DNA from: Candidatus Desulfovibrio intestinavium
Lineage (GTDB): Bacteria; Desulfobacterota; Desulfovibrionia; Desulfovibrionales; Desulfovibrionaceae
Reading direction: 5' to 3'
Length of the DNA: 64,000 nucleotides
Assembly: GCA_019118345.1 (NCBI GenBank)
Contig: DWZD01000051.1
Span: 1,498 to 65,497, forward strand
The position numbers were made by a program, and so were the translations under genes. Every line of letters starts with the position of its first letter. The first letter of the stretch is position 1. Positions 11,462 to 58,218 of the stretch are shown here, piece by piece. The notes beneath the pieces are model-generated. The model did no database searches. It worked only from the letters and a program-made list of their open reading frames with translations, and was not told the origin of the DNA.

Positions 11462-11478
11462 CGCCGTCGGAGCCTGAC

Positions 11479-12114: not shown

Positions 12115-12190
12115 GCCCCGCATGGCCTGAACGATGTTGTCGGCTCACGGGAGATCTTGCCCGCCGTACCCGTGACGCCTGACGCACCCA

Positions 12191-12219: not shown

Positions 12220-12397
12220 GGGTGGCCCTCCGCTGCGGCCCTGCCGCCGGGGGGCGAAAGCCCGTGACAAGGCGAGGCATCTCAACTAGTATGCGTCTCA
12301 CACATCACGCTCCCGACAGGAGACCGGGCAGGCGCTTCGCGCCGCCGATGCTTACGGGAGCGTCGCCCGTCACCGCTTTTTGAAAAAGGAACACCGT

Positions 12398-12676: not shown

Positions 12677-12920
12677 TTGCCGCCGTTCCCGCCTTGCGTT
12701 CGCCCGCCGGGCAACGGCATCCCGGCCCGCCGCCGCTTCCGGCAGGGCGGCGGGCAAGGCTGCATTGTCCCTGCGCAGCCGGGCCGCGTCACGCGCCGCG
12801 CCCCTCTTCAGTCATGGCGAGAGACGGTGACGGTCAGGGGAGCCTTCGCCACGGGCCGCGCGACCGATATTGCCCGGAAAGCCGGCGGCCCTCAGGACAG
12901 GCGGCAGGCCGGGCCAGTCC

Positions 12921-13421: not shown

Positions 13422-13461
13422 GGCAGCCTCGCGTCCGGCTTTCGGACGCCCATCCGTTCAT

Positions 13462-13499
13462 CGCGAAAGGGCAGGGGCCGCCCATGACGCCCCCTGCCC
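13462..13499 (-). terminator. Probable intrinsic terminator downstream of nrdJ
   Basis: Minus-strand RNA: GGGCAGGGGC-gtcatgggc-GGCCCCTGCCC followed by TTTCG. Confidence 0.5.
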
Positions 13500-13548
13500 G
13501 CAAAACATCATCCCTGCCTCCCGGCGGTCGTCCGACCCCGGAAACGCC

Positions 13549-15807
13549 CTAGCCGCAGCGGGAGAAGCCGCAGGCCGGGCAGATCAGGCAGCCTTCCTGA
13601 AAGACCAGTTCCGCGCCGCATTCGGGGCAATGCTGCTGCTCGATGTCCGTGACGCCGGATCCGAGCCGCTCATCCTTGAGGTAGCGCCGTTCCAGCACCC
13701 AGGCAATGGCATCGGGAATGGACAGCAGCAGGCCCTTGCCCCGGAAGACGGGATGTTCGCCGCCGATGCCCTTGATCTGGGCCACGATGTCCCGCACCTC
13801 GATGCCCGAGCGCAGGGCCAGGGACACCAGCCGGCCAATGGCCTCGGCCTTGGCGGTAATGGAGCGCCCGGACTTGCCGATGGTGGCAAAAACCTCGAAG
13901 GGCTTGCCGTCCAGCTCGTTGACCGTCAGATACATGGCCCCGAGGCCGGTCTGCACCTTCTGGGTGAAGCCCTGCACCACATCGGGCCGCTTGCGCACGG
14001 CGGAAACCGGCGCGGGTGCGCTCGCGCCGTCCATCTTTTTCTGCCCCTCGCCGGTGGCCAGCACCTGCAGGGCCTTGCAGCCGTCGCGGTAAACGGTGAC
14101 GCCCTTGCAGCCCTCCTTGAAGGCCAGCCAGTAAATGTCGTAAATGTCCTGTTCGGTGGCGCTGTTGGGCAGATTGACCGTCTTGGATACGGCATTGTCC
14201 GTATGCCGCTGGAAGGCGGCCTGCATGCGCAGATGCCAGACCGGATCGATGTCCATGGCCGTCACGAACACCCGCCGCAGGCTTTCGGGCAGGAAGTCCA
14301 TTTCGCGGATGGAGCCCTTTTCCAGCACATTTTGCATGAGTTCCGCCGAATCCAGTCCGGCGGCCCGCACGGCCTGCTCAAAGTGGGGATTGACCTCCAG
14401 CAGCTTTTCCCCGTCCAGGATGTTGCGGGTAAAGCAAAGGGCAAAGAGCGGCTCCACGCCGGAGGAGCAGCCCGCCAGCAGGGACAGGGTGCCGGTGGGC
14501 GCGATGGTGGTCACCGTGGCATTGCGGTAGGGGCCTTCGCCGCGCCGCGCATAGGCGGATTGCTCCCAGGCCGGGAAGGGGCCGCGCTCGCGCGCCAGCT
14601 CAGCCGAGGCCCTGTGGGCCTCCTCGTTGACAAAGGCCATGATGCGCTCGCCGAGGGCCGTGCCGGCCTCCGAGTCATAGGCAATGCCCAGTTCATAGAG
14701 CAGATCCGCAAAACCCATGACGCCCAGACCGATCTTGCGGTTGCGGCGCACGGTCTCGGCAATGCGCTCCAGCGGGAAGCGCGAGGCGTCAATGACATTG
14801 TCGAGAAAGTGCACGGACAGGTGGATGACCTCGCGCAGGGCGTCCCAGTCGATGCCTTTGGCGGCGGGATCGGCGTCCTCGTTATGGCCGGGCCGGTAGA
14901 AGCAGGACAGATTGATGGAGCCGAGGTTGCAGGCCTCGTAGGGCAGGAGCGGCTGTTCGCCGCAGGGATTGGTGGATTCGATGTCCCCCTGCTCAGGCGT
15001 GGGATTGTCCCGGTTGATGCGATCCAGAAAAATGATGCCCGGATCGCCCGACTGCCAGGCCTTCTTGACCAGCAGATCGAAGATCTCGCGGGCGCGCAGG
15101 CGCTTGACCGCCTCGCCGTTCTGCGGCTGGATCAGGTCGTATTCGGCATCCTGCTCCACGGCCTGCATGAAGGCTTCCGTCAGGCCCACGGACAGGTTGA
15201 AGTTGTTGAACTCGCCGTCCTTTTCCTTGGCGCGGATGAACTCCACGATGTCGGGATGATCCACGCGCAAAATGCCCATGTTGGCCCCGCGCCGCGTGCC
15301 GCCCTGCTTGACCTGCTCGGTGGCCGTATTGAAAATGCGCAGGAAGGATACCGGCCCGGACGCCACGCCGCCCGTGGAACCCACCCGGCTGGCCTTGGGG
15401 CGCAGGCGGGAGAAGGAAAAGCCCGTGCCGCCGCCGGATTTGTGGATCATGGCCGCGTACTTGACCGCGTCAAAAATTTCCTCGATGGAGTCGCCCACGG
15501 GCAGCACGAAGCAGGCCGAAAGCTGCCCCAGATCCGTGCCCGCATTCATGAGGGTGGGCGAGTTGGGCAGAAATTTCCACGAGGTCATCAGGTCATAGAA
15601 ACGGCGGGCCAGCGCGGCCTGCGCTTCCCGGGCAACGCCGTAGCGCCCGTCCTCGGCGGCGATGGCCGCAGCCACGCGCCAGAACAGGTCGCGCGGCTCC
15701 TCGACCAGCTGCCCCTCAGGATCCTTGCGCAGATAGCGCTTTTTCAGCACGACTTCGATATTGGGCGTAAGCTGCGGATGCGGCAGCTCAGAAGGCATGG
15801 GGATCAT
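13549..15807 (-). CDS. nrdJ: Adenosylcobalamin-dependent ribonucleotide reductase (class II)
   Basis: Contains ...LMNAGT..., TNPCGEQPLLPYEACNLGSINLS, and a C-terminal Zn ribbon CPECGAELVFQEGCLICPACG. Start placed at ATG 15807 (MIPMPSEL), which has an AGGGAAAG RBS. An in-frame ATG at 15834 is an alternative. Confidence 0.93.
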   Translation of the reverse strand: MIPMPSELPHPQLTPNIEVVLKKRYLRKDPEGQLVEEPRDLFWRVAAAIAAEDGRYGVAREAQAALARRFYDLMTSWKFLPNSPTLMNAGTDLGQLSACFVLPVGDSIEEIFDAVKYAAMIHKSGGGTGFSFSRLRPKASRVGSTGGVASGPVSFLRIFNTATEQVKQGGTRRGANMGILRVDHPDIVEFIRAKEKDGEFNNFNLSVGLTEAFMQAVEQDAEYDLIQPQNGEAVKRLRAREIFDLLVKKAWQSGDPGIIFLDRINRDNPTPEQGDIESTNPCGEQPLLPYEACNLGSINLSCFYRPGHNEDADPAAKGIDWDALREVIHLSVHFLDNVIDASRFPLERIAETVRRNRKIGLGVMGFADLLYELGIAYDSEAGTALGERIMAFVNEEAHRASAELARERGPFPAWEQSAYARRGEGPYRNATVTTIAPTGTLSLLAGCSSGVEPLFALCFTRNILDGEKLLEVNPHFEQAVRAAGLDSAELMQNVLEKGSIREMDFLPESLRRVFVTAMDIDPVWHLRMQAAFQRHTDNAVSKTVNLPNSATEQDIYDIYWLAFKEGCKGVTVYRDGCKALQVLATGEGQKKMDGASAPAPVSAVRKRPDVVQGFTQKVQTGLGAMYLTVNELDGKPFEVFATIGKSGRSITAKAEAIGRLVSLALRSGIEVRDIVAQIKGIGGEHPVFRGKGLLLSIPDAIAWVLERRYLKDERLGSGVTDIEQQHCPECGAELVFQEGCLICPACGFSRCG

Positions 15808-24237: not shown

Positions 24238-25026
24238 TTAGTTGTGGGAGGGCAGCACGGCCCCGGCGTACTTCTGCTTCATGAAGGCCGCCAGTTCCGG
24301 ACTGGTCAGGGCCTTGTAGAGGGCCGCCAGCTCGGGGCGCTGCTCATCGCCGGCGCGCACAGCCAGAATATTGGCATAGGTGGCGGCGGCCACGGAATCG
24401 GCAGCTTCCACGGCCAGGGCGTCGGCCACCTTCAGCCCGCCGAGGATGGCATAATTGCCGTTGATGATGGCCACATCCACATCGGGCAGGGCGCGCACAA
24501 GCTGGGCGGCCTCGATTTCCTCAATCTTGAGGTTTTTGGGATTCTCGGCAATGTCGCGCCGGGTGGCGGCCAGACCGGCGTCCTTCTTCAGCTTGATGAG
24601 GCCCACGGCTTCCATGAGCAGCAGGGCGCGACCCTCGTTGGTGGCGTCATTGGGCACGGCCACCTGCGCGCCGTCCTTGAGATCCTTGAGGCTCTTGCAC
24701 TTGCCCGCATAGATGCCGAAGGGTTCGTAGTGCACGCCGCCCATGCTCACGAGTTTGGTGCCCTTCTGGGCGTTGAAGTCGTCCAGATAGGGCTTGTGCT
24801 GAAAGTAGTTGGCGTCCAGATCCTTGCTTTCCAGGGCCATATTGGGCTGCACATAGTCGGAATATTCCACGATCTTGAGTTCATAGCCGTCCTTCTTCAG
24901 CAGCTTGGCGGCTTCGTTCAGAATTTCGGCATGGGGCGTGGGCGAAGCGCCCACCACGATGGTGTTGCCCGCATGGGCGGAAAGGGGCAGCAGCAGGGCC
25001 GCCAGAGCGAGAAGCAGTTTTTTCAT
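24238..25026 (-). CDS. metQ: Methionine ABC transporter substrate-binding lipoprotein (MetQ/NlpA family)
   Basis: [19 protein letters not shown] signal. [34 protein letters not shown] is nearly the E. coli MetQ signature. GGGAG RBS. Confidence 0.9.
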
Positions 25027-25103
25027 GGTCATATCTCCCACAGGCTAAAGGGTGTCGTGCGCGGCCCCCTCGGCACGGGGCGCACCGCACGGAAAAAGCG
25101 GAA

Positions 25104-25766
25104 TCAGGAACCGCGCTTGTCGCTGCGCCGGGTGGCCCAGTTGCCGAAGCTCTGGAAGGCCTGCACGATGATGATGAGCAGCACCACGGTCATGATCATG
25201 ATGTCGGTCTGATAGCGGTTGTAGCCATACATGATGGCCAGCTTGCCCAGGCCCCCGCCGCCCACGGCCCCGGACATGGCCGAATAGCCAAGGATGGTGA
25301 TGGCCGAGACCGCGCTGCCGTTGATGAGCGAGGGCAGGGCCTCGGGCAGGAGCACCTTGCGGATGATCTGCCAGGTGGATGCGCCCATGCTCTGGGCGGC
25401 CTCCACCACCCCGCTGTCCACTTCCAGCAGGGAGGCTTCCACCAGACGGGCCACAAAGGGCGCGGCGGCCAGCACCAGCGGCACCACGGTGGCATTGTTG
25501 CCGATGGTCGTGCCCACAAGGAAACGGGTAAAGGGAATGACGGCGATCATGAGAATGAGGAAGGGGAAGGAGCGGGTCAGGTTGACCACCACATCCAGCA
25601 CCCCGTACACCAGCGCATTGGGCCGGATGCCGTCCTTGCGGCAGATGACCAGCACCACGCCCATGACCAAACCGAAAACATAGGACAGGAACGTGGCCGC
25701 AAGGGTCATGTAGAGGGTGTCCAGCACCCCTTCAAGGAGCATTTCGACGGTTTGGTGGTCAATCAC
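25104..25766 (-). CDS. metI: Methionine ABC transporter permease
   Basis: SFPFLILMIAVIPFTRFLVGTTIGNNATVVPLVLAAAPFVARLVE...VLLPEALPSLING matches MetI. GTG start at 25766, 7 nt after GGAGGAA and overlapping the metN stop. ATG 25742 is an alternative. Confidence 0.88.
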   Translation of the reverse strand: MIDHQTVEMLLEGVLDTLYMTLAATFLSYVFGLVMGVVLVICRKDGIRPNALVYGVLDVVVNLTRSFPFLILMIAVIPFTRFLVGTTIGNNATVVPLVLAAAPFVARLVEASLLEVDSGVVEAAQSMGASTWQIIRKVLLPEALPSLINGSAVSAITILGYSAMSGAVGGGGLGKLAIMYGYNRYQTDIMIMTVVLLIIIVQAFQSFGNWATRRSDKRGS

Positions 25767-26763
25767 GGCGCATTTCCTCCAGCAGGATGTTGTGGGCGCG
25801 GGCATAGGCCATGATGCGCTCGCGCGAAGCCTCGCGCGCGGGCAGCTGCAGCACCATCTGGCCAAAGGCCACGCCGTTGATGTCGCGGGTGTCGGCGTAC
25901 ATGATGTTCACCGGGCAGCCGCATTCCAGCACCATATTGGCGATGACCGGCTCGAAGGAGGAACGCCCGTTGAAAATGAGCCGGTACATGTGCTCGCCGG
26001 GCAGCTTCTGCAGGGCCTCGGGCAGGACGAGCCGCCGCGCGGCCTCGGTCTGCGGATGAAAGAAGACCTCCTCCACCAGTCCCTGCTCCTCGATGACGCC
26101 CTTGTTGATGATGGCCACATGGCTGCAGATCTTTTCGATGACGCTCATCTCGTGGGTGATGACCACGGCGGTGATGCCCAACTGCGCATTGATGTCCTTG
26201 ATCAGGGCGAGGATGGAATCCGTGGTGGCCGGGTCAAGGGCCGAGGTGGCCTCGTCGCAGAGCAGCACGCGCGGATTGGTGGCCAGGGCGCGGGCAATGG
26301 CCACGCGCTGCTTCTGCCCGCCGGAAAGCTGTGAGGGATAGGCATCCTGCCGACCGGAAAGGCCCACCAGCTCCAGCAATTCCAGGGCACGCGCGCGGGC
26401 CGCCGCCTGCGACGTGCCCACCAGCTCCAGCGGAAAGCAGACATTCTGCAGGGCCGTGCGCTGCATGAGCAGGTTGAACTGCTGAAAGATCATGCCCATG
26501 GAACGCCGGGCCGCGCGCAGTTCCGCCTCCGGCAGGCGGCAGAGATCCTTGCCCTCGAAGAGCACGCTGCCGCCCGTGGGCCGCTCCAGCATGTTGATGC
26601 AGCGCACAAGGGTGGACTTGCCCGCACCGCTCTGGCCGATGATGCCGAAGATGTCGCCCTTTTCTATGGCGAGATCAATGCCGCGCAGGGCGTATACGTC
26701 AGCCTTCTTGCCGGGAAAGCGTTTTTCCAGTCCGATTATCTGAATGATGGGCGCACCGGCCAT
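25759..26763 (-). CDS. metN: Methionine ABC transporter ATP-binding protein
   Basis: Walker A GQSGAGKSTLVRC, signature LSGGQKQRVAIARAL, Walker B LLCDEATSALD, and a C-terminal NIL/ACT-like domain. GGAGGAAATC-ATG at 26763. The long ORF-track extension to 27162 is rejected. Confidence 0.93.
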   Translation of the reverse strand: MAGAPIIQIIGLEKRFPGKKADVYALRGIDLAIEKGDIFGIIGQSGAGKSTLVRCINMLERPTGGSVLFEGKDLCRLPEAELRAARRSMGMIFQQFNLLMQRTALQNVCFPLELVGTSQAAARARALELLELVGLSGRQDAYPSQLSGGQKQRVAIARALATNPRVLLCDEATSALDPATTDSILALIKDINAQLGITAVVITHEMSVIEKICSHVAIINKGVIEEQGLVEEVFFHPQTEAARRLVLPEALQKLPGEHMYRLIFNGRSSFEPVIANMVLECGCPVNIMYADTRDINGVAFGQMVLQLPAREASRERIMAYARAHNILLEEMRRD

Positions 26764-26900
26764 GATTTCCTCCGCCGAACGTCTTTCCGCTCGCGCACGG
26801 GCAAAACCCGCCCCGCGACATACGGTGGCGCAGCCTAGCATGTTTTTCGCCGGGCGCAAAGGGGAGAACCCGCGCCCGCCTTGCCCCTCCGTCCGGGCAG

Positions 26901-26936
26901 CAAAAGCGGGAGGGACGTTGCCGCATCCCTCCCGCA
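26901..26936 (-). terminator. Intrinsic terminator downstream of secA
   Basis: Minus-strand RNA: GCGGGAGGGA-tgcggcaacg-TCCCTCCCGC-TTTTG. Confidence 0.8.
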
Positions 26937-26959
26937 CCAATGGCCGCATCCGTTCGCCG

Positions 26960-29485
<2,526 letters not shown>

Positions 29486-47096: not shown

Positions 47097-47873
47097 TCAA
47101 CTGAAGCCGTAGTAGTCCACATAGCTGACCAGATCCTCCACCGTATCCCGCAAGGGGCCGAGCATGGCGTTCACGAAGCCGTCAATGGGGCCATAAATGG
47201 TCTGCGTGACGCTCACGGCGTACTTGACCGGCACCTTTTCGCTCAGAATGGGAATGGCCAGCCCCTTGAGCGAGGGATAAAGCTCCCCGTCCATGACGGC
47301 ATATCCCCGCTTGCGCACTTCCTCCAGATCCCGCAGCAGCTGTTCCGGGCTGCTGGTCGTCTTTTCCGTGAAGGTGGCGAATTCCGTCCGCTGCAGGTAG
47401 GCGTTCAGATCCTTTTCCGGCAGATGGGCCAGAATGGCCTTGCCCAGGGCTGAACAATAGGCCGGCACTGATCGCCCGACGGAAAACTGGGCATAGCTGG
47501 AATTGGTGCTTTGCAGGCGGTAGACGATGTCCTTGCCGTTCCACATGCCGAGATTGCATATCCCGTTGTTGTCCTTGTTTTTCTTTGCCAGTTCATCCAG
47601 AAACTGGATGGCGATCTGATCAAAGTCGCGTTTGGGCAGGATGCCCTTGCCGAGTTTGGACAGTTTGTCGGTGAGCACATAGTTGTTGTGCTGATCCTTG
47701 TCCACATAGCCGTGCAGGCGCAGGGTACTCAGAAAACGATAGCTGGCGCTTTTCTGCATGCCCATGCGTTTGGCCACGCTGGTGACGGTGACGTGCTTCT
47801 CCTCAACGAGCAGCTCCAGGAGTTGCAGGCCTTTTTCAAATGTTTGCACATAGATGACGCTGTTCTTCCCCAT
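47097..47873 (-). CDS. IclR-family transcriptional regulator
   Basis: N-terminal wHTH (VQTFEKGLQLLELLVEEKHVTVTSVAKRMGMQKSASYRFLSTLRLHGYV) and a C-terminal IclR effector domain (GRSVPAYCSALGKAILAHL...YAVMDGELYPSLKGLAIPI). Divergent from the GRE operon. Confidence 0.9.
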   Translation of the reverse strand: MGKNSVIYVQTFEKGLQLLELLVEEKHVTVTSVAKRMGMQKSASYRFLSTLRLHGYVDKDQHNNYVLTDKLSKLGKGILPKRDFDQIAIQFLDELAKKNKDNNGICNLGMWNGKDIVYRLQSTNSSYAQFSVGRSVPAYCSALGKAILAHLPEKDLNAYLQRTEFATFTEKTTSSPEQLLRDLEEVRKRGYAVMDGELYPSLKGLAIPILSEKVPVKYAVSVTQTIYGPIDGFVNAMLGPLRDTVEDLVSYVDYYGFS

Positions 47874-48411: not shown

Positions 48412-49227
48412 ATGAGTCAGGTACCCGTAGCCGTAGTGACCGGCGGCAGCCGCGGCATCGGCAAGGCCGTGGCCGATGAATGCATGAGCCTTGGTTTCCG
48501 TGTGGTGCTGGTGGCGCGCAGCGCGCGCAATCTGGAACAGGCCTGCCGGGAGTTGAGCGAAAAACACGCCCCGGATGCGGCCCACCAGCCCGACATGGTG
48601 TCCGTGGATGTGGCGGATGTGGCGGCCGTCAAGGCGGCGGCCGACGACATCATCCGTCGGCACGGTCATGTGGATCTTCTGTTCAATGCCGCCGGCATCA
48701 GCATTCCCGGCACCTTTGAACTGGATGCGGAAACCTTTACCCGCCTGTTTGAAATCAACCTCCGCGCGCCCTTCCTTTTTATGCAAGCCTTTCTGCCGCA
48801 CATGGCGGCGCAGGGCGGCGGGCGCGTGGTCAACGTGGCGTCGCGCAACGGCAAGGTGGCCGTGGCGGGACTGGGCGGCTATTCGGCCTCAAAATACGGT
48901 CTGGTGGGTCTGAGCGAATCCGCCTACCGGGCCTATGCGGCGCAGGGCATCAGCATCACGACCATCTGTCCCGGCTGGGTCAATACGGAGATGGCCGCCA
49001 ATGAAGGGCCGTCCCTCAGGCCCGAGGAAATGGTGCAGCCGGAAGATGTGGCCAAGACCCTGCGCTGGCTGCTGAGCATGAGTCCGTCCGTGCGGGTCAT
49101 GGAAGTCATGCTCGAATGCGCCAAGGATGTGGAACGCCGGGCCTCGGTGGAACTGGCCAAGCTGTATGCCCTCAAGCACCGGCATGAAGATGAATTCAGC
49201 ACCCTGGACGTACAGGCGGAATCATGA
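48412..49227 (+). CDS. Short-chain dehydrogenase/reductase (classical SDR)
   Basis: TGGSRGIGKAV cofactor motif, NAAG, and the catalytic S...YSASK tetrad region. 271 aa. GAGGAGGAAG RBS. Confidence 0.92.
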   Translation: MSQVPVAVVTGGSRGIGKAVADECMSLGFRVVLVARSARNLEQACRELSEKHAPDAAHQPDMVSVDVADVAAVKAAADDIIRRHGHVDLLFNAAGISIPGTFELDAETFTRLFEINLRAPFLFMQAFLPHMAAQGGGRVVNVASRNGKVAVAGLGGYSASKYGLVGLSESAYRAYAAQGISITTICPGWVNTEMAANEGPSLRPEEMVQPEDVAKTLRWLLSMSPSVRVMEVMLECAKDVERRASVELAKLYALKHRHEDEFSTLDVQAES

Positions 49228-50138
49228 AGGCCGTCATAGAGAATATTCAGCATTTCAGCCTGCATGACGGGCCGGGTACGCGAACCACGGTCTTTTTCAA
49301 GGGCTGTCCCCTCCGCTGCGCCTGGTGTTCCAATCCCACCACGCAGAATTTCGGGGTCGAACTCCTGCAAAAGGCGGACAAGTGCCTGCGCTGCGGCGCC
49401 TGCGCCGCGGTCTGCCCGCATCAGGCCGTGAGCATGGTTCCCGGCTCGCTGCCGCGCATCGACAGAAGCCGTTGCGTCAATTGCGGCCTGTGCACCGCCT
49501 CCTGTCCCGGCAAGGCGCTGGTCATGGCCGGGCAGGAATACACGCTGGAAAGCGTGGTGACCAATATTGCGGCCGATATGCTCTTTTACCGCAATTCCGG
49601 CGGCGGGGTCACCCTGTCCGGCGGCGAGGTGCTGGCCCAGAGCGACTTTGCCGTGGCGCTCTGCGAGGAATGTCACGCCCTCGGCATCCAGACGGCCGCA
49701 GAAACCTCGGGCTATGCGCCCTACGAGAATCTGCGCCGCCTGTCGTCGGTGACGGATATTCTGTTCATGGACATCAAGCATGCGGACAACGCCGAACACA
49801 AGCGGCTCACGGGCATGGACAATGCGCATATCCTCGACAATTTCGCCCGACTGCTCCGGGACAGGGTGGAGCCGGTTCATGTGCGGCTGCCGCTGATCCC
49901 GGGCTGCAACGACAGCGACGACCATCTGGCCGCCTATGCGGCGCTGCTGTCGGGCATGGAAGGGAATTTTGATCTGGAGGTGCTGCCCTATCACCGTCTC
50001 GGCAAGAACAAATACGACATGCTGGGCCGGGAGTATGCCCTCGGGGATACCCCTCCGCTTGAGGAAGAACGGGTCGCCCGGGCGGTGTCCCTGCTGCGCG
50101 AGGGCCTCGGGCGCATTCCCGTCCTGTGTACGGCCTGA
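49224..50138 (+). CDS. Glycyl-radical enzyme activating enzyme (radical SAM, with two auxiliary ferredoxin-type clusters)
   Basis: HDGPGTRTTVFFKGCPLRCAWCSNP (CX3CX2C), followed by CLRCGACAAVCP and CVNCGLCTASCP. The ATGA overlaps the SDR stop. 304 aa. Confidence 0.95.
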   Translation: MKAVIENIQHFSLHDGPGTRTTVFFKGCPLRCAWCSNPTTQNFGVELLQKADKCLRCGACAAVCPHQAVSMVPGSLPRIDRSRCVNCGLCTASCPGKALVMAGQEYTLESVVTNIAADMLFYRNSGGGVTLSGGEVLAQSDFAVALCEECHALGIQTAAETSGYAPYENLRRLSSVTDILFMDIKHADNAEHKRLTGMDNAHILDNFARLLRDRVEPVHVRLPLIPGCNDSDDHLAAYAALLSGMEGNFDLEVLPYHRLGKNKYDMLGREYALGDTPPLEEERVARAVSLLREGLGRIPVLCTA

Positions 50139-50188
50139 CCGCTGGAACGAACAAACCTGTCATGAGCAACGTTTCTGGAGGAACAATC

Positions 50189-52573
50189 ATGGCTCTTACC
50201 GAAGAGGCGCGTCTTGATCGCGTCATGAAGCTGAAGTCCCAGTTCTTTTCACATCGCCCCAGCGTCTGCATTGAAGGCGCGCTGTCCAAGACCGAGGTGT
50301 TCAAGGCGACCGAAAGCGAACCCATGATCATCCGCCGCGCCAAGGCCTTCAAGCGGCATTGCGAAACCAAGACCATCACCATCCAGCCCCATGAGCTTAT
50401 CGTGGGCAATGCGGGCGCAGTGGCCCGCAGCATCCATGTGAACCCGGAATTGTCCAACAACTGGTTCTATGACGAGCTGGACACCATGAGCACCCGGCCG
50501 CAGGATCCCTACCAGATCACCGAGGAGCAAAAGCGCCTGTACCGTGAGGTCGTCTATCCCTACTGGAAGGGCAAGACCCTGCGCGACTACTGGAATGCCC
50601 GCGCCCCCGAGGATGTGCGCGAACTGGTGGCCGTGGGCGGCGTGTGCGACAATGACGTGAAGATCGAATGCACGCCCGGCGACATGGTGCCGGCGTTTCA
50701 GCAGATCATTCTTCCGCTGGGCTTCGACGGCATCCGCCGGCAGGCGGAAGAACATCTGAAGGATCTGGACTTCAACCAGATCGAAAACTTCGCCCGCCGG
50801 GACTTCTGGCGTTCCGTCATCATCTGCTGCGAGGGCTTTTCCGCGCTCTGCGAGCGGCATGCCGACATGGCCCGCGCGCTTCAGGTGGGCGCCGACGAGC
50901 AGCGCCGCGAGGATCTGCGCCGCATCGAGGCGGCCTGCCGGGCCATTGCCCACAATCCGCCCAGCACCTTCCACGAGGCCGTGCAGCTGGTCTACTTCGT
51001 CTTTGTGGGCCTGTTCATCGAGGGCAATGCCGGCGGCTATTCGCCGGGCCTGCTCGACCAGTACCTGCTGCCCTATTATGAAAAGGCGCAGGCCGACGGC
51101 ATGAGCGACGAGGAGATTCTCGAGATCATCGAATGCTTCTATGTCAAGACCGGCGAACAAATCTGGTACTGGAACGAGCCGGCCGCCCGGCACTATTCGG
51201 GCTACTGCGCCTTCCAGAACATCGCCCTCGGCGGTCTGGACACCTACGGGCGGGATGCCGTCAATCCGCTGACCTATCTCATGCTTCAGGCGGGCATCGA
51301 CGTGCAGATGGTGCAGCCCTCGCTCTCCGTGCGCATCAGCAAGAAGAATCCCGAAGCCTTCTTCCTCAAGGTGGCCGAACTGGTGCAGACCGGCTCCGGC
51401 TTCCCGGCGGTGTTCAGTGATGACGTGGGCTACAAGATGCTGCTCAAGAAGGGCATCCCCGCCCACCTTGCCCGCGACTGGGCGCCCATCGGCTGCGTGG
51501 AAGCCCAGCTGGCCGGGCGGCACTATCAGTGGAGTTCCGCGGGCCATTACAATCTGGGCAGCGCCGTGGAATTTGCCATGACCAACGGCATCCACCTGCA
51601 AAGCGGCAAGAGGCTTGGCATCGAAACCGGCGATCCGGCCACCTTCACGACCTTCGAGCAGTTCAAGGAAGCGCTCTTTGCCCAGCTGCGCCACCTGCTG
51701 CATCAGTTCTCCGTATCGCAGAATACGCTGGAAGAACTGCATTATCAGTATCTGCCCAATCCCGTGGCCTCCATGTTCACCGCCGGCTGCATGGAAAAGG
51801 GCCTTGACCTCACCCACGGCGGCGCGGAATTCAATACCGGCCCCGGCATGAACGGCAACGGCGTGGGCGACTTCGTGGATTCCCTGGCTGCGGTCAAGAA
51901 GATCATCTTTGACGAAAAGCGCTTCAGCATGGCCGATCTGGCCGCGGCCATCAAGGCCGACTTCAAGGGCTATGAGGCCCTGCAACGCGCCCTTGAGGAA
52001 GATGCGCCCAAGTGGGGCAACAATGACCCTGAAGCCGACGAGGCCATGATCGCCATGTGCGACGTGATCATCCGCGAAATCGACACCTATCGCGGCAAGC
52101 TCGGCAATCACAAGCTGCCCGCGCTCTATCCCGTGTCCTCCAACGTGCCGCAGGGCATGGCCGTGGCGGCCCTGCCGTCGGGCCGCAATGCGGGCAAGCC
52201 GCTGGCCGACGGCTGCTCGCCCTCGCAGGGCCGCGACCGCCTTGGCCCCACCGCCATTTTGCAATCGCTCGGCAAGCTGCCCCACGAAAGCATTGACGGC
52301 GGCACCCTGCTGAACATCAAGTTCACGCCGCAGGTCATTCAGGGCAAGGAGGGCCGTGCCCGCATTTCGGCCTTCCTCAAGACCTTCCTTGACCTTGATG
52401 TGTTCCATGTGCAGTTTAACGTGGTCAGCCACGAAATCCTGCGCTGCGCCCAGAAGAATCCTGAGGAGTACAAGAGTCTGCTGGTGCGTGTGGCGGGCTA
52501 CAGCGCTTACTTTGTGGAGCTGAGCAAGGAAATTCAGGAAGACATCCTGAGCCGCACGGCGCACGAACTCTAA
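50189..52573 (+). CDS. Glycyl radical enzyme of the 1,2-eliminase (dehydratase/lyase) type, substrate unknown
   Basis: 794 aa from the ATG 50189 (GGAGGA RBS). The Cys loop is WAPIGCVEAQLAG (Cys436/Glu438 by my count; TGC at 51494). The glycyl radical motif is LLVRVAGYSAYFVEL (Gly770; GGC at 52496). The conserved LGIETGDP segment is present. There is no CC dyad, so this is not a pyruvate formate-lyase. Confidence 0.93.
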   Translation: MALTEEARLDRVMKLKSQFFSHRPSVCIEGALSKTEVFKATESEPMIIRRAKAFKRHCETKTITIQPHELIVGNAGAVARSIHVNPELSNNWFYDELDTMSTRPQDPYQITEEQKRLYREVVYPYWKGKTLRDYWNARAPEDVRELVAVGGVCDNDVKIECTPGDMVPAFQQIILPLGFDGIRRQAEEHLKDLDFNQIENFARRDFWRSVIICCEGFSALCERHADMARALQVGADEQRREDLRRIEAACRAIAHNPPSTFHEAVQLVYFVFVGLFIEGNAGGYSPGLLDQYLLPYYEKAQADGMSDEEILEIIECFYVKTGEQIWYWNEPAARHYSGYCAFQNIALGGLDTYGRDAVNPLTYLMLQAGIDVQMVQPSLSVRISKKNPEAFFLKVAELVQTGSGFPAVFSDDVGYKMLLKKGIPAHLARDWAPIGCVEAQLAGRHYQWSSAGHYNLGSAVEFAMTNGIHLQSGKRLGIETGDPATFTTFEQFKEALFAQLRHLLHQFSVSQNTLEELHYQYLPNPVASMFTAGCMEKGLDLTHGGAEFNTGPGMNGNGVGDFVDSLAAVKKIIFDEKRFSMADLAAAIKADFKGYEALQRALEEDAPKWGNNDPEADEAMIAMCDVIIREIDTYRGKLGNHKLPALYPVSSNVPQGMAVAALPSGRNAGKPLADGCSPSQGRDRLGPTAILQSLGKLPHESIDGGTLLNIKFTPQVIQGKEGRARISAFLKTFLDLDVFHVQFNVVSHEILRCAQKNPEEYKSLLVRVAGYSAYFVELSKEIQEDILSRTAHEL

Positions 52574-52580: not shown

Positions 52581-52604
52581 GGGCCGGGGCCTGTGCCCCG
52601 GCCC
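52581..52604 (+). other. Intercistronic perfect stem-loop between the GRE and binding-protein genes
   Basis: GGGCCGGGGC-ctgt-GCCCCGGCCC begins 8 nt after the GRE stop. No T-run follows, and the RBS GGAGG of the next gene follows at 52612. Confidence 0.6.
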
Positions 52605-52625
52605 CTGATCCCGGAGGCATGAACC

Positions 52626-53675
52626 ATGAAGCAAGTTTTTTTCTGGGCAGTGCTCTGCCTGCTGCTCGCCACGACGGCGCAGGCTGCCCCTGTAACGGTG
52701 AAAAGCGCCTGGCTTGACGAGTACGAGGCCCTGCCCGCCTGGTATGCCCATGAGCGGCAATGGGATGCGGAGGCGGGGATCAGCCTTGACATGCGCATCT
52801 ATCCTTCGGGCAAATTTCTCATGGACAACATGAGCAGCATCAAATGGGACGTGGCCGGTCTGGGCGGCGCGCCGGCCGTGCCGGGCATGCTGCGCAAGCA
52901 GGCCATTGTGGTGGGCATCGGTTCTGACGAGGCCGCTGCCAATGCCGTGTATGTGCGTCCTGACAGTCCGCTGCTGACGGCTTTTCAGCAAAAGCTGTCC
53001 GCCCGCGATTACGCCCGGCTGGTGACGGGCAAGGTGGTGCTCTGCCCGCGCGGCACGAGCGCGCACCAGCTGCTTCTGCTCTGGCTGGATCGCATGGGCC
53101 TCAGCGAGGAAAGCATCTCGCTCATGGATACGCCCCCCGCCGAAAGCGTGGGCAATCTCAGCGGCGGGGTGGGGGATATGGCCGTGCTCTGGTCGCCCGA
53201 GACCTGGGCCGCCGAGCAGGCCGGACTGAAAGCCCTGCTGACCGGCAAGGATCTCGGCCTCGTCCAGCCGACCCTGCTCATGGCCCGCTGCGACTATGCG
53301 GAAAAGAATCCCGACGGCGTCCGGGCCTTTCTGGCCTGCTATCTGCGGGCCGTCGAGGCCCTGCGGGCCATGCCCGCCGAGGAACTGGGCGCGCTGTACC
53401 GGCAGTTCCAGAAGGAATTTTGCGGCAAGGACATCAGCGCGGAACAGGCCGCGCGGGACGTGGCGAGCCATACGCTGTACCCCCTTGACCGACAGCGGGA
53501 GGTGCTTGCCTCGGAAGGGGAGCTGTTGACGTGGCTGGGGGATGTCATCGCCTTCCATGAGCGTACCGGCGAGCTCAGCCGGGGCCAGACGCGCGCCATC
53601 AGGGAACTGTCGCTGGTGCGGGCGGATTTTCTGCCCGCGTCTCTGCCCGAATCGCATGCCTCTGACGGGCAGTGA
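52626..53675 (+). CDS. Periplasmic substrate-binding protein of the NitT/TauT (SsuA/TauA/NMT1) ABC family; no cognate permease or ATPase nearby
   Basis: Signal peptide MKQVFFWAVLCLLLATTAQAA. The 349-aa protein has SsuA/TauA-like architecture (...IYPSGKFLMDNM.. WDVAGLGGAPAV ... VVLCPRGTSAHQLLLLWLDRMGL ... GDMAVLWSPE...). The family call rests on overall resemblance only. Confidence 0.7.
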   Translation: MKQVFFWAVLCLLLATTAQAAPVTVKSAWLDEYEALPAWYAHERQWDAEAGISLDMRIYPSGKFLMDNMSSIKWDVAGLGGAPAVPGMLRKQAIVVGIGSDEAAANAVYVRPDSPLLTAFQQKLSARDYARLVTGKVVLCPRGTSAHQLLLLWLDRMGLSEESISLMDTPPAESVGNLSGGVGDMAVLWSPETWAAEQAGLKALLTGKDLGLVQPTLLMARCDYAEKNPDGVRAFLACYLRAVEALRAMPAEELGALYRQFQKEFCGKDISAEQAARDVASHTLYPLDRQREVLASEGELLTWLGDVIAFHERTGELSRGQTRAIRELSLVRADFLPASLPESHASDGQ

Positions 53676-53761
53676 AAGCGGGCAGGCGGCCGTCGCGGCC
53701 TTTTGCCAAGCATTGATCTGAAACGCCGCCCGTAGTGCGCGGCAGGGAGAACGCTGATGCG

Positions 53762-53800
53762 GGGGAGCGGCTTTTTTGCCGTTCCCCCGTTCTGTTTGCG
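53762..53800 (+). terminator. Possible terminator of the GRE operon
   Basis: GGGGGAGCGGC-tttttt-GCCGTTCCCCC followed by GTTCTGTTTG. Confidence 0.4.
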
Positions 53801-53904: not shown

Positions 53905-53933
53905 TTGACTCGTGAAAATCCCTTCTCTAAAAT
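53905..53933 (+). promoter_or_regulatory. Near-consensus sigma70 promoter for the TRAP operon
   Basis: TTGACT (53905-53910), 17-bp spacer, TAAAAT (53928-53933). It would give a ~130-nt AT-rich leader before dctP. Confidence 0.55.
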
Positions 53934-54070: not shown

Positions 54071-55096
54071 ATGAAGCTGTTGCAAACCATGATATGCACG
54101 CTTGCCGTGTGTGCCCTTGTTCTTGGCGGTCTGAGCGAATCGGTCAAGGCCGAACCCAAGGAAATCAAGCTGCTCTTCCCCGAACCCTTCAGCGCGGCCT
54201 CCTCCTATGCCGAAGGGCAGGCCGTGGGCATCTATTACGGCGCTCTGGACTTTTACATGCAGAACCATCCCGCCCTGCGTGGCAAGTTCAAGATGCGCTG
54301 GGTGGGCGACGTGGTGAAGTCCCCGGCCGACGCCCTCAATGCCGTGGCCACCGGGGCCGGGCAGATTACCTACACCCTGCCGCAGTTCATCGAACAGTTT
54401 GACCCCGATTGGCGCATCATCACCACGCCCGGCATGTTTGTGGACATGGCCCACTTCCTGCGCGCCATGAGTACGCCGGAATGGAAGGCCAAGCAGGAAA
54501 TGCTGGAAAAGAACTGCGGCTTCAAGATTCTCAAGTGGACGAACTCCATCGGGCACTTCTACCTCTGGACCAAGACCGGCCCGGCCGACACCCTCAAGGC
54601 CCTGCGCAACCAGAAGATCCGCTATGCCGGCCAGCAGTCCTATGCCGTGGCCTTCAACAAGCTGGGCCTCGTGGGCGTGGCGCTGCCCTATACCGAAGTG
54701 GTTTCCGCTCTGCAGACCAACATGATCGAAGGGCTGACCAACGACATTTTCGGCTACACCTATTACGATCTGCCGCGCCAGACCAAGTACATGCTGCCGG
54801 TTCCCTTCGGCTTCGGGCCGCAGGCGCTGGTGGTGAACGCGGAATGGTGGAACAACCTGCCCAAGGAGCAGCGCGACGCCATCAACTTCGTGGTGCAGTG
54901 CACGGACGTGCACCAGTACTTTGAAGCCGAGGAAAAGCGCATCCTCAAGTGGTGGGATGAAAACCCCGGCACCGAGCTGGTCAAGCTGACGCCTGAAGCG
55001 CGCGCCGAATGGGATGCCGCGCTGGCTGAAGCCGCCGCGGAATTCACCAAGGACGCCGATCCGGCCTTGCTCAAGGCCATTCGCGACAACAAGTAA
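54071..55096 (+). CDS. TRAP transporter substrate-binding protein (DctP family, divergent)
   Basis: Signal peptide MKLLQTMICTLAVCALVLGGLSESVKA. The 341-aa protein has DctP-like organisation, immediately followed by dctQ/dctM homologues. AAAGGAG RBS. Confidence 0.8.
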   Translation: MKLLQTMICTLAVCALVLGGLSESVKAEPKEIKLLFPEPFSAASSYAEGQAVGIYYGALDFYMQNHPALRGKFKMRWVGDVVKSPADALNAVATGAGQITYTLPQFIEQFDPDWRIITTPGMFVDMAHFLRAMSTPEWKAKQEMLEKNCGFKILKWTNSIGHFYLWTKTGPADTLKALRNQKIRYAGQQSYAVAFNKLGLVGVALPYTEVVSALQTNMIEGLTNDIFGYTYYDLPRQTKYMLPVPFGFGPQALVVNAEWWNNLPKEQRDAINFVVQCTDVHQYFEAEEKRILKWWDENPGTELVKLTPEARAEWDAALAEAAAEFTKDADPALLKAIRDNK

Positions 55097-55151: not shown

Positions 55152-55664
55152 ATGTCCGACCACACGACGACCCGTTACGAGCGCATCAAGCAGCGCTGGA
55201 TGGAATTCTGGGGACTGGTGTTTTTTCTGGGAGTGCTCATCAACTTTGCCGAAATCATCTGCCGCACCGTCTTTCATTTTTCCATTGACCTCATGTACGA
55301 CCTGCCCATCTGGCTGACCATCTGGGCGGTCATGATGCTGGCCGGCCCCATTCTGCTGGATGGGGAGCATGTTTCCGTGGATATGGTGCGCGACGCCGTG
55401 CACGGCAAGCCGCGCAAGTGCATCGAAATCATCAACTGTCTGGCGACCATTGCCTTCGGCGCGGTGGTGACCTGGAGCGGCTATATTTTCATTAGCCAGT
55501 GCTACCGCTTCAACATGAAGATTATCCGTTGCATCCCCGTCCCCCGCTGGATGGTGGAAATCTGCATTCCGCTGGGCATGGCCGTGTTCACCCTGTATGC
55601 CCTCATTCAGCTTGGCCGCGTGCTGCGCACCAATTACGACAAGAAGCCCGAAAACGGCGACTAG
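55152..55664 (+). CDS. TRAP transporter small permease (DctQ family)
   Basis: 170 aa with four TM helices, positioned between the DctP-like and DctM genes. GGGAGG RBS. Confidence 0.85.
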   Translation: MSDHTTTRYERIKQRWMEFWGLVFFLGVLINFAEIICRTVFHFSIDLMYDLPIWLTIWAVMMLAGPILLDGEHVSVDMVRDAVHGKPRKCIEIINCLATIAFGAVVTWSGYIFISQCYRFNMKIIRCIPVPRWMVEICIPLGMAVFTLYALIQLGRVLRTNYDKKPENGD

Positions 55665-55699
55665 ATTCTCACGCCTGTCGCATTGAACAAGGAGACGGC

Positions 55700-56983
55700 A
55701 TGGACACCACCACAATCCTTTCCCTGGCGTTGATCGTCCTCTTTTTCCTCATCGGCACGCCGCTGAGCGTCACCTTCAGTATCGGTTCCATCATCATCAT
55801 GATCCATACGATGGGCTTTCCCGTCGGCAATATTTCCCAGATTTTTTATACGACCATCAGCGGCTATCCCCTGCTGGCCATGCCGTTCTTCATCTTTGCG
55901 GGCAATGCCATCCTGTCCAGCGGCGGCATGGGCCATTTGCGCGACTTCATGAACCGTCTGGTCGGTCATCTGCCCGGCGGCATGGCCGTGGCCATCTGCA
56001 TCTTTGCCGCCTTTCTCGGTTCCATTTCCGGCTCCGCCACGGCCTGTCTGGCCATCATCGGCACCATCTTCGTGCCCATGCTGGCGGAATCCGGCTATTC
56101 CCGGGCCTTCGCATCCGGGCTGGCCGTGACCTCGGCCGGGCTGGGCGCGGTCATTCCGCCCAGCGTCTTCATGATCATTTTCGGCGCGAGCAATCGCATT
56201 TCCATTGCCGACCTGTTTGCCGCGGGCGTGGGGCCAGGCCTGCTGGCCGCCCTGCTCATGTGCGTGCTGACGGTGATCATCTCCCTGCGTCGCGGCTACT
56301 ACGGGGGAAAGAAGGCCAGCACGGCCGAACGGCTGGATGCCTTCCGCAAGGCCCTGCCCATTCTGCTCATGCCCATCATCGTGCTGGGCGGCATTTATTC
56401 CGGCATTTTCAGCCCCACGCAGGCGGCCTCGGTGGCCTGCGTCTATTCGCTCCTGCTCGGGGTGTTCATCTACAAGGGCATAACCTGGCGCGTCTTTCTC
56501 AATATGCTGGTGGAAACGGTGCGCCTGAGCAGCATGATTTATTTCCTCGTCATCGGCGGCGAACTGTTCGGGCGCGTGCTCGGCTATGTGGGCCTGCCGC
56601 AGATGATCAGCCAATGGGTCATCAACATGCACCTTGGCCCCACCTCCTTCCTCTTTGCGGTACAGGCGCTTCTGCTGGTCATGGGCTTTTTCTTCTCCTC
56701 CTTCCCGATGGTGGTCATCGTGCTGCCGCTCTTTTTGCCCAGCGTCATGGCGCTCGGCATTGACCCGGCCCTCTATGGCGCGCTGGCCGTGTTCTGCGCC
56801 ATCATCGGCGAAGTGACGCCGCCCATGGGGCCGCAGCTCTGGATCGCCGCGCCCATCTGCAAGGAGAAGATCGGCAACATCATGCGGGAATCCTGGGCCT
56901 TCCTCGGCGTGCAGGTGCTCACCCTGGGCATTGTCACCGTTTTTCCGCAGATTTCGCTGTTCCTCGTCAACCTCATGCGCTGA
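55700..56983 (+). CDS. TRAP transporter large permease (DctM family)
   Basis: 427 aa. MDTTTILSLALIVLFFLIGTPLSVTF..., ~12 TM helices, with typical DctM segments (GGMGHLRDFMNRLVGHLPGGMAVA, SGSATA, IPPS). AAGGAGA RBS. The ORF-track start at 55499 overlaps dctQ and is rejected. Confidence 0.92.
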   Translation: MDTTTILSLALIVLFFLIGTPLSVTFSIGSIIIMIHTMGFPVGNISQIFYTTISGYPLLAMPFFIFAGNAILSSGGMGHLRDFMNRLVGHLPGGMAVAICIFAAFLGSISGSATACLAIIGTIFVPMLAESGYSRAFASGLAVTSAGLGAVIPPSVFMIIFGASNRISIADLFAAGVGPGLLAALLMCVLTVIISLRRGYYGGKKASTAERLDAFRKALPILLMPIIVLGGIYSGIFSPTQAASVACVYSLLLGVFIYKGITWRVFLNMLVETVRLSSMIYFLVIGGELFGRVLGYVGLPQMISQWVINMHLGPTSFLFAVQALLLVMGFFFSSFPMVVIVLPLFLPSVMALGIDPALYGALAVFCAIIGEVTPPMGPQLWIAAPICKEKIGNIMRESWAFLGVQVLTLGIVTVFPQISLFLVNLMR

Positions 56984-57057: not shown

Positions 57058-58218
57058 ATGTCCAAGACCCTGCTTATCCTCGGACTCGGCGGCGTGGGCT
57101 GCTTTGCCGCCCACTTGGCGGCGCGCCTGCCCGGCCTGCATGTGGTGGTGGGCGATGTGCGTGAAGAACATGCGCGGCAGGTGGCCAACAGTCTGATCTC
57201 GGTCAATTTTTTCGAGGGGGCGGCGCAGCGCTTCCCCCGGGTGGATGCCGTGGGGCTGGACATGATGCGGCCGGAGGACATTGCCCGGGTACTGGAAACC
57301 TGGCGGCCGGACGTGATCTTCAACGCCACGACCCTGCTGTCGTGGTGGCATCTGCATCGCCTGCCCCATGCGCTGGCCCGCCGCATCTACTACGGCGATC
57401 CCGAAGGCTGCGGCCTGCGGCCCTGGGCGCCCGGTCATGGCGTGCTCCTGACCCATCTCATGCGGGTCGTGCGCGCCGTGCTGCCGCAAGCGCGGGTGGT
57501 CAACGTGTCCGGGCCGGACTATCTGCATGAGATGCTGGGCAAGGTGGGGCTGGCCCCGGATGTGGGCGTGGGCAATGTGGCCCTGCTGGAACCCATCCTG
57601 CGACGCATCGTGGCCGAAAAGCGAAACGTGCCGCCCGAAGCGCTGGACATCACCCTGGTGGGTCACCATTGCATGTGCATGCAGATTTTTCAGGAAGGCG
57701 CGCTGGCCCCGGAAATTCCCTTCCATCTCCGCATCGAGGAGGACAGGCGGGACATTACCGCCGAGCTGGATATCGACCGCGATCTCTGGGCGCGGGTTCC
57801 CGCCCATATGCCCCTGCTTTCGGAGGTCAATCAGCAATGCGTGGCGGCCTCGGCCCTCAGGATCATCCGGGCCATGCTCTACGATACCGGAGAGATCATG
57901 CATGCGCCGGGGCCGTGCGGCCTGCCCGCGGGCTGCCCGGTGCGGGTGGACGCTTCCGGCGTGAAGGTGGTCGTGCCGCCGGAACTGGGCCGGGAACGGA
58001 TGCTGCAAATCATGTACGAGGCCAACCGCCGTGAGGGCTTCGAGCCGACGGGCGAGGACGGCACGGTCACGGCCACGCCGCATTGCGCGGAGGTGGTTGA
58101 GGACGTTTTCGGCATCAGCTGGCGCTACCGGCGGTTCCGGCTGGAAGAAATGTTCGACGCCCATCAGGAAATGGCGGAGGCGTTCAGCCGGCTGCTGGCC
58201 CGCTATCCCGGAGCCTGA
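57058..58218 (+). CDS. Saccharopine-dehydrogenase-like NAD(P)-binding oxidoreductase
   Basis: N-terminal Rossmann LLILGLGGVGCFAAHLAARLPGLHVVVGDV, 386 aa. Overall it looks like the Sacchrp_dh / homospermidine-synthase-like superfamily; that family call is from memory. GGAAGGAGGAAG RBS. Last gene of the TRAP operon. Confidence 0.6.
   Translation: MSKTLLILGLGGVGCFAAHLAARLPGLHVVVGDVREEHARQVANSLISVNFFEGAAQRFPRVDAVGLDMMRPEDIARVLETWRPDVIFNATTLLSWWHLHRLPHALARRIYYGDPEGCGLRPWAPGHGVLLTHLMRVVRAVLPQARVVNVSGPDYLHEMLGKVGLAPDVGVGNVALLEPILRRIVAEKRNVPPEALDITLVGHHCMCMQIFQEGALAPEIPFHLRIEEDRRDITAELDIDRDLWARVPAHMPLLSEVNQQCVAASALRIIRAMLYDTGEIMHAPGPCGLPAGCPVRVDASGVKVVVPPELGRERMLQIMYEANRREGFEPTGEDGTVTATPHCAEVVEDVFGISWRYRRFRLEEMFDAHQEMAEAFSRLLARYPGA

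Follow-up and report, generated by a model that had tools for sequence, protein, structure and literature searches.

A secreted TauA/SsuA-type binding protein of a glycyl radical enzyme island belongs to a Desulfovibrionaceae clade without linked ABC transporter genes

How does an exported binding protein from a family of ATP-binding cassette (ABC) importer subunits function at a locus whose only transporter is of another type? This question is raised by a gene at positions 52626–53675 (+) of a 64-kb window, the whole 64,000-nucleotide stretch of DNA analysed here, from Candidatus Desulfovibrio intestinavium (assembly GCA_019118345.1, contig DWZD01000051.1). The gene lies in an island that also encodes a glycyl radical enzyme (GRE) and a transporter of the tripartite ATP-independent periplasmic (TRAP) type, and an initial annotation made from the sequence had proposed that its product feeds a distant ABC importer, partners a sensor or chemoreceptor, or has been recruited to the TRAP membrane components. 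Here we find that the protein belongs to a clade that has parted from ABC genes and occupies loci with TRAP or tripartite tricarboxylate transporter (TTT) genes. Our preferred account, held tentatively and somewhat short of an even chance, is that it is a functional periplasmic receptor for the island substrate, descended from an ABC subunit and acting independently of ABC transport alongside the TRAP system. Desulfovibrio and Bilophila relatives make hydrogen sulfide in the gut from sulfonates of dietary and host origin, a route whose first committed step is uptake.

A secreted TauA/SsuA-type protein in a clade without linked ABC genes

The open reading frame is intact, with an ATG start and 349 codons. 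Its N-terminus, MKQVFFWAVLCLLLATTAQA/AP, reads by inspection as a Sec signal peptide (approximately residues 1–20) that ends AQA/AP and carries no lipobox, and this signal is retained in 17 aligned orthologues and in a further copy at locus L108. The product scores above the cut-off of the Pfam model NMT1_2 (38.5 bits; cut-off 24.7) and just short of that of NMT1 (20.4 bits; cut-off 20.5). It falls outside the SsuA subfamily as modelled by NCBIfam SsuA_fam (TIGR01728; 54.7 bits against a cut-off of 163.5) and outside the TauA equivalog models TIGR01729 and NF008553 (28–29 bits against cut-offs of 304 and 490). Its sequence matches in the Protein Data Bank (PDB) include SsuA (2x26, E-value 8.7e-8) and TauA (6ssy, 1.3e-6). 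An AlphaFold2 model built from the 17 orthologues reached a pLDDT of 89.1 and a pTM of 0.85, with low pLDDT at residues 1–20, and Foldseek comparison placed TauA 6ssy first (E-value 8.6e-18, TM-score 0.68–0.79) and SsuA 2x26/3ksj next, with further matches to other sulfonate binders, Thi5 and NrtA and a probability of 1.00 for all top matches. A Pfam search at E 0.001 or better returned no DctP (PF03480), TAXI (NMT1_3) or TctC/Bug (PF03401) match for the binding protein. These results establish the protein as a genuine TauA/SsuA-type member of the NitT/TauT binding-protein fold family with the two-lobe type II architecture, and uphold both the family and the signal peptide given in the initial annotation. 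The match to the fold of Thi5/NMT1-type hydroxymethylpyrimidine phosphate synthases (E-value 2.5e-13) is weaker than those to TauA and SsuA, and the predicted signal peptide argues against a cytoplasmic enzyme of that type.

Family members were found in 88 of 400 sampled Desulfovibrionaceae genomes. We compared 85 of them together with approximately 15 kb around each, identifying neighbours by tblastn with a panel drawn from the window and its own genome and by Pfam on recurrent clusters. A maximum-likelihood tree of these 85 rows contains a branch with 99/100 support that divides them, as an unrooted split, into groups of 34 and 51, and all 11 copies from GRE islands form one clade (100/100) within the 34-row group. 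A NitT/TauT permease gene lies within 5 kb in 37 of 51 rows on one side and in 1 of 34 on the side that holds the window gene, and TRAP or TTT genes stand alongside in 2 of 51 and 27 of 34 rows, respectively. The single permease neighbour in the 34-row clade (L050) is 3.6 kb off and on the opposite strand. Loci on the 51-row side usually follow the order ATPase, binding protein, two permeases, ATPase, and several sit beside an alanine dehydrogenase gene.

The 34-row clade comprises GRE islands (11 rows), operons of an M20 peptidase gene, dctP, dctQ, dctM and the binding-protein gene, the last placed 60–210 bp after dctM (5 rows), tctB-tctA-M20-tctC-binding protein clusters (8 rows), clusters that combine succinyl-CoA-ligase-like subunits, an aldehyde dehydrogenase and tctCBA (4 rows), and a few true orphans, some beside dnaA. 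One genome, G017, carries members of the clade both directly after dctM and beside TTT genes. Through kinship the 27 TRAP- or TTT-linked rows amount to approximately five or six lineages and are not independent; four of the GRE-island labels were assigned by hand after inspection of the loci, and the contig of one of these four, L032, ends before TRAP genes could appear. With the sole outgroup included, the ABC-less clade nests inside ABC-linked lineages, a rooting made insecure by the very long outgroup branch (3.9 substitutions per site). The tree suggests one loss of ABC linkage from an ABC-linked ancestral state, a polarity that is likely but not secure.

The initial annotation had held that a cognate ABC pair beside orthologues elsewhere would mark this copy as a remnant, and the tree answers in two parts: such pairs do accompany paralogues of 25–35% identity, and they accompany none of the 11 members of the GRE-island clade. 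Three ABC-linked paralogues on the 51-row side (L091, L112 and L113) stand beside GRE genes, two of whose products are 61–68% identical to the window GRE and one 35%. At L112 (genome G306) and L113 (G125), the GRE paralogues with 61–68% identity adjoin complete ABC operons that include a family binding protein, and L112 also holds an apparent frameshifted second GRE copy, matched in two pieces.

A sulfoacetate cluster, SauCD/SauS/SauXYZ, is known from Bilophila (PMC10413351); the four-row cluster with succinyl-CoA-ligase-like subunits and tctCBA matches it by domain content and order, from which we infer orthology, and the Bilophila paper makes no mention of such a binding protein. Amidohydro_3 enzymes of approximately 548 residues recur beside family members at L046, L065, L066 and other loci, and match, in family and size, short amidohydrolases of Bilophila for which weak bile-salt-hydrolase activity has been reported, a hint that some paralogues serve the use of taurine conjugates. 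Frames of 807–811 residues (G146/L062) that could be read as fusions with DctM proved to be the binding-protein frame staying open across dctM in GC-rich DNA, with dctM itself in a different frame, and in-frame TGA/TAG flags in a few family matches were taken as alignments running past the ends of open reading frames.

The window's own genome (G000), from chicken-gut material, is 2.53 Mb long with 64.6% G+C and is 99.98% complete. It encodes three family members, the window gene and copies on contigs C39 and C38, and none is beside ABC genes. The C39 copy (L023 8158–15879), which falls with the window gene in the ABC-less clade, adjoins genes for succinyl-CoA-ligase-like alpha and beta subunits and an aldehyde dehydrogenase together with tctC, tctB and tctA. 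The C38 copy (L024 6352–10261) falls on the ABC-linked side of the tree yet has no ABC genes, lying between genes for alanine dehydrogenase and a major facilitator superfamily transporter. At the equivalent locus of same-genus relatives (L054 and L057) there is a two-permease/two-ATPase ABC operon, which G000 appears, from this comparison, to have lost. Pfam BPD_transp_1 detects ten permease genes across G000, one of them of the NitT/TauT type, in a system at approximately 120.7–123.2 kb of C39 that consists of one permease, at approximately 121.4–122.3 kb, one TauB-like ATPase and an NMT1-type binding protein of its own. A tblastn search with the relatives' two-permease system reached only this simpler locus, at 28–32% identity, and found no two-permease system in G000. 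The distant ABC importer envisaged in the initial annotation is weakened by this genome-wide search for NitT/TauT permease and ATPase genes: one simpler system does exist, on another contig and already paired with a binding protein of its own. Adjoining that system, within approximately 120.7–127 kb of C39 (L027 4685–10886), are genes with PylD_N, ATP-grasp (PylC-like), radical SAM (PylB-like) and class II tRNA-synthetase core (PylS-like) domains, an assembly that suggests a putative pyrrolysine cluster.

Maintenance of the gene and its predicted ligand pocket

Co-occurrence with the GRE, a point raised in the initial annotation, extends to 10 further genomes, which represent the window's own genus and three more coded genera and at whose loci genes for a short-chain dehydrogenase/reductase (SDR), the GRE activase, the GRE and the binding protein recur together with dctPQM and an IclR-family regulator gene. 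All 11 GRE-island copies of the binding-protein gene, from 11 genomes, are intact, and the GRE-island protein is seen only where TRAP genes also occur (10 of 10 loci with enough contig). At L038 (G234) the GRE is of a second, paralogous type with 58% identity, and the gene order in genus g18 is activase-GRE-cupin-binding protein. The islands of genus g62 (L032, L033, L035 and L036) have a second GRE, 55–56% identical to the first, inserted between the binding-protein gene and dctP with no second activase, such that two radical enzymes flank the binding protein.

The binding protein is the most diverged product of the island, with 42–48% identity to its counterparts at L031–L037, where orthologous GREs retain 73–84%, 45% identity to the L038 copy and 32–33% to those of genus g18. 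Ratios of nonsynonymous to synonymous substitution rates (dN/dS; Nei–Gojobori) are 0.08–0.44 for the binding protein and 0.04–0.15 for the GRE in the same genome pairs. The gene is maintained by purifying selection, yet it is the island's hot spot of change. Between L031 and L034, from the same genus, the binding protein is 61% identical with a synonymous divergence (dS) of 0.80, and the GRE, activase, SDR, DctM and IclR products are 87–95% identical with dS of 0.27–0.42. This local peak could stem from allele replacement by recombination or from diversifying pressure on an exposed protein. In another genus, locus L107 of genome G125 (9711–14564) carries a cupin-SDR-activase-GRE block whose GRE is 92% identical to that of the window and whose nucleotide homology to the window runs up to the GRE stop codon and no further. 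The 9.7 kb downstream of this GRE contain neither a binding-protein gene nor TRAP genes, and a pseudogene remnant of the binding protein was rejected, with no trace in G125 by tblastn at E 5 or better. The pattern suggests that the enzyme operon moved laterally, and recently, unaccompanied by the binding-protein or TRAP genes.

In TauA the sulfonate is bound by Gln30 and by the backbone at Gly61, Gly79 and Thr132 (PMC6906117). In a phmmer alignment, TauA Gly61, Gly79 and Thr132 correspond to Gly62, Gly80 and Ser145 of the window protein and the neighbouring His134 to His147; on either side of the tree, at least 90% of sequences carry Gly62, Gly80 and His147, and Ser145 is kept in all inspected sequences but two. 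The sulfonate/oxyanion-site positions of TauA and SsuA are thus present in the predicted protein, as an indication of the scaffold and not of the ligand. Asp205 of TauA, which binds the taurine amine, aligns to a gap, and Glu102, a family-wide residue near the hinge, may stand in for TauA Glu106 at a position where the alignment is ambiguous; this mapping onto TauA is partial, being drawn from alignment and ambiguous around Glu106 and Asp205. Twelve residues are conserved regardless of transporter context (Trp29, Glu32, Glu34, Gly62, Gly80, Glu102, Asn106, Arg111, His147, Trp189, Tyr239 and His282). The GRE-island clade has a further signature of its own (His42, Pro60, Thr61, Leu65, Asp67, Gln148, Asp168 and Glu173), whose residues flank the ligand loops at positions 60–67 and 148. 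Retention of these clade-specific, pocket-flanking residues among copies only 32–48% identical points to a defined ligand. We read the family as probably sharing a scaffold for small anionic or zwitterionic ligands that would be tuned clade by clade, and the ligand class of the window protein is, judging from these residues, probably a small anionic or zwitterionic compound of the sulfonate type. The suggestion in the initial annotation that the ligand offers a handle on the substrate of the whole island still appears reasonable, with backing from the conserved GRE-island signature.

Organization of the island

The island spans 47.1–58.4 kb between pbpC and typA and encodes an IclR-family regulator, a small cupin, the SDR, the activase, the GRE, the binding protein, DctP, DctQ, DctM and a weakly saccharopine-dehydrogenase-like enzyme. 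Pfam and NCBIfam matches identify the divergent regulator gene (47097..47873, −) and the GRE-activating radical SAM enzyme (49224..50138, +), and Pfam identifies the SDR (48412..49227, +). The GRE gene (50126..52573, +; stop codon at 52571–52573) has Pfam PFL-like and Gly_radical domains and lies upstream of the binding-protein gene in the same operon. Its product reaches no NCBIfam equivalog, and the closest solved structures are the N-methyl-cis-4-hydroxyproline dehydratases HpzG (8IOF) and HpyG (8ID1), followed by CutC. The TRAP genes encode a divergent DctP-type binding subunit with its own signal peptide (54071..55096, +; Pfam DctP 6.9e-29 and NCBIfam TRAP_S1), the small membrane subunit DctQ (55152..55664, +; Pfam) and the large membrane subunit DctM (55661..56983, +, start approximate; Pfam DctM 2.5e-87 on the longer open reading frame 55499–56983). 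The gene after dctM (57058–58218, +) has a weak saccharopine-dehydrogenase NADP-binding match (E 0.0024), and its product is kept beside dctM in same-genus islands at 71–72% identity. No ABC genes occur in the island, as the initial annotation had stated; the sole ABC system of the window is MetNIQ (24238–27162, −), comprising a MetQ-like lipoprotein, a MetI permease and a MetN ATPase, which is of the methionine type, distinct from NitT/TauT, and lies outside the island.

Between the GRE stop codon and the binding-protein gene is a perfect 10-bp GC hairpin (52581..52604, +) with arms GGGCCGGGGC and GCCCCGGCCC at 52581–52590 and 52595–52604 and a four-nucleotide loop CTGT, followed by a GGAGG ribosome-binding site (52613..52617, +) located 8 nt before the ATG. 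Both elements had been described in the initial annotation and are confirmed in sequence and, for the stem, by folding: the 71 nt around it have a folding energy of −30.9 kcal/mol (z = −3.1 relative to shuffled sequences), and the stem is not followed by a T-run. A strong GC hairpin 3′ of the GRE stop codon is present in five of six orthologous loci examined, with sequences that vary by locus, directly at the stop codon in L032, L033, L035 and L036 and approximately 70 nt downstream in L031; in the sixth, L034, none is evident after the stop codon. The hairpin is probably an intercistronic stabiliser or attenuator. Downstream, a terminator-like hairpin of 13 pairs with a T-rich tail (53759..53790, +) closes the cupin-SDR-activase-GRE-binding protein operon, supporting the proposed co-transcription with the GRE, and a promoter-like site (TTGACT-17-TAAAAT, 53905..53933, +), assigned by consensus match only, precedes dctP. 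The binding-protein gene therefore closes the enzyme operon and does not open the TRAP operon, and the promoter-like site marks the TRAP genes as a second transcription unit. RNA libraries of chicken-gut samples yielded assembled contigs with pieces of the island, among them parts of the binding-protein gene (X4 bins 52760–53527 and an X7 contig at 52705–52960), a weak hint of transcription that carries no levels and no proof; as assembled contigs they are uninformative on level, operon structure and hairpin effect, and uncovered bins carry no meaning.

Partners of the binding protein and known systems

In the account we prefer, the protein would have originated as the binding subunit of a two-permease/two-ATPase ABC importer, and after its clade came apart from the ABC membrane and ATPase genes its members would have settled in catabolic clusters served by TRAP or TTT systems. 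The window gene, last in its operon, would be read through the conserved GC hairpin, which probably holds the binding protein below the level of the enzyme, and the exported product would close around the island substrate or a close precursor, acting as an accessory high-affinity receptor beside the co-encoded DctPQM with no dedicated ABC importer. We infer that this work is independent of an ABC importer: such a role is favoured by the repeated placement of the clade beside TRAP or TTT genes, by the fact that G000 lacks the ancestral ABC type and by the want of an ABC partner conserved across the clade. The last point follows from the remaining permeases, since the best matches in five other genomes are only approximately 30% identical to the G000 permease. 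A binding protein that was exported and docked onto nothing would sequester its substrate, and a partner is therefore expected.

Several observations weigh against this account. Each of the six genomes checked retains at least one NitT/TauT-like ABC permease; in G000, G017 and G250 this permease is part of a complete system that includes a binding protein. No TRAP or TTT locus was found in which the family protein replaces DctP or TctC, the regular subunit always being present. Gln214 is the sole residue that marks the ABC-less clade as a whole relative to the ABC-linked side, and a single marker gives no clear sign of a re-tooled docking surface in the aligned sequences. On the same genome pairs, constraint on the binding protein is two- to fourfold weaker than on the GRE. 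It is also missing from the GRE islands of G125, G017 (GRE and TRAP genes) and G240 (GRE alone), and is thus dispensable for the enzyme pathway.

These points bear unequally on the alternatives. The protein could share a translocator, feeding the single NitT/TauT system of G000 in competition with the resident binding protein, its gene co-regulated with the catabolic genes, and we regard this as doubtful though deserving of attention. An SsuC/TauC-like permease and a TauB-like ATPase do exist in G000, with comparable single systems in G017 and G250, and with a lone signature residue a docking surface may have been kept. That DctP or TctC is always present, and that the clade has ties to two unrelated membrane machineries, point the same way, and several binding proteins serving one ABC translocator is an established arrangement, as in HisJ/ArgT and LivJ/LivK. 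However, the remaining permeases of G000, G017 and G250 are only approximately 30% identical to each other, the resident binding protein on C39 is too distant to be found with the window protein as query, the ancestral relatives use a heterodimeric two-permease system not found in G000, and a shared translocator leaves the steady TRAP/TTT placement of the clade unexplained. Direct docking on the TRAP or TTT membrane subunits, the recruitment raised in the initial annotation, would make the clade a new binding-subunit class on DctQM or TctAB, a second receptor that widens or sharpens the substrate range. TAXI proteins show that a type II fold distinct from DctP can serve TRAP-type membrane proteins, and the occurrence of 27 among the 34 clade members next to TRAP or TTT genes (compared to one with an ABC permease nearby), five of them directly after dctM, together with the restriction of the GRE-island protein to loci with TRAP genes, give the idea circumstantial support. 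We nonetheless judge it decidedly improbable: the clade is tied to two unrelated machineries and also to none, DctP or TctC is always there, the protein matches none of the DctP, TAXI and TctC families in Pfam, no membrane-subunit fusion was seen, and here the gene is transcribed with the enzyme and not with dctPQM. The wider proposition that the clade changed partner, its members becoming second receptors on TRAP or TTT membrane parts or on their regular subunits and so a third structural class for sulfonate-type substrates of gut sulfidogens, strikes us as quite unlikely.

A signalling role, in which the loaded protein docks on a chemoreceptor or membrane sensor encoded elsewhere and steers chemotaxis or expression instead of transport, has models in maltose-binding protein with Tar and in TorT with TorS. 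Binding proteins can act as co-receptors (PMC8050422), an extra one accompanying a complete TRAP or TTT system would be available for this task, and fast evolution is compatible with a changing partner. The sensor or chemoreceptor partnership proposed in the initial annotation nevertheless finds no local support, and we consider it quite improbable: no kinase, chemoreceptor or cyclase gene adjoins the family member in the loci examined, and the recurrent regulators are cytoplasmic, IclR here and sigma-54 activators with PrpR_N elsewhere. We know of no member of this binding-protein family that signals, which reflects a gap in knowledge and not a test. Finally, the protein might be a relic of an ABC importer replaced by TRAP, expressed and folded, with no role in the pathway and slowly drifting. 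It is the fastest-evolving product of the island both across L031–L037 and between the two same-genus species, it has been lost from some islands, and related GRE clusters with full ABC systems exist (L112, L113 and L091). Set against this, every GRE-island copy is intact, the 17 aligned orthologues and the L108 copy keep the signal peptide, dN/dS is well below 1, the clade-specific pocket residues are conserved, and a genome of only 2.5 Mb retains three family members, all of which makes a relic very unlikely.

The clade travels with TRAP and TTT genes, a sulfoacetate-like cluster, M20 and amidohydrolase genes and the GRE, and the ligand of the binding protein could reveal the substrate class of the radical enzyme. 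Its docking partner would show either a new use of binding proteins by secondary transporters or a hub-and-spoke ABC arrangement in reduced genomes; a plain case of a shared translocator would be an ordinary result.

Among known systems, Escherichia coli TauA (PDB 6SSY; PMC6906117) is the best structural match and shares the two-lobe type II fold, the backbone oxyanion site and a periplasmic location, but it is only approximately 19% identical, carries Asp205 in an insertion that the window protein lacks, and is encoded with TauB and TauC, which have no counterparts alongside the window gene. SsuA of E. coli and Xanthomonas (2X26, 3KSJ) is the best PDB sequence match and second-best fold and has the G-[ST]-[ST]-x-H helix-cap motif in common; it differs in that the window protein has the conserved family-wide residues Trp29, Glu32, Glu34 and Glu102 and no linked SsuBC. 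The ABC-linked Desulfovibrionaceae relatives belong to the same family, with 25–35% identity and the same family-wide conserved residues, but lie across the 99/100 branch, keep their permease and ATPase genes and lack the GRE-island signature. Orphan binding proteins are common, and Bug/TctC orphans and TAXI proteins are precedents, respectively, for binding proteins whose genes stand away from those of the membrane components and for the use of a fold other than that of DctP by TRAP-type transporters; the window protein differs from both in its ABC-type pedigree. AdpC is one such orphan Bug/TctC binding protein of secondary transporters (PMC8050422). In Taurinivorans muris LT0009, tauABC homologues are unclustered and not expressed on taurine, and two TauA proteins went undetected in the proteome (PMC10507020); that study includes no analysis of those TauA proteins or of TRAP/TTT placement, and our literature search found no paper describing the ABC-less clade or its TRAP/TTT linkage. 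What is new relative to these systems is that TauA/SsuA-type proteins of sulfidogenic gut bacteria form a coherent ABC-less clade whose members sit in catabolic loci served by TRAP and TTT transporters.

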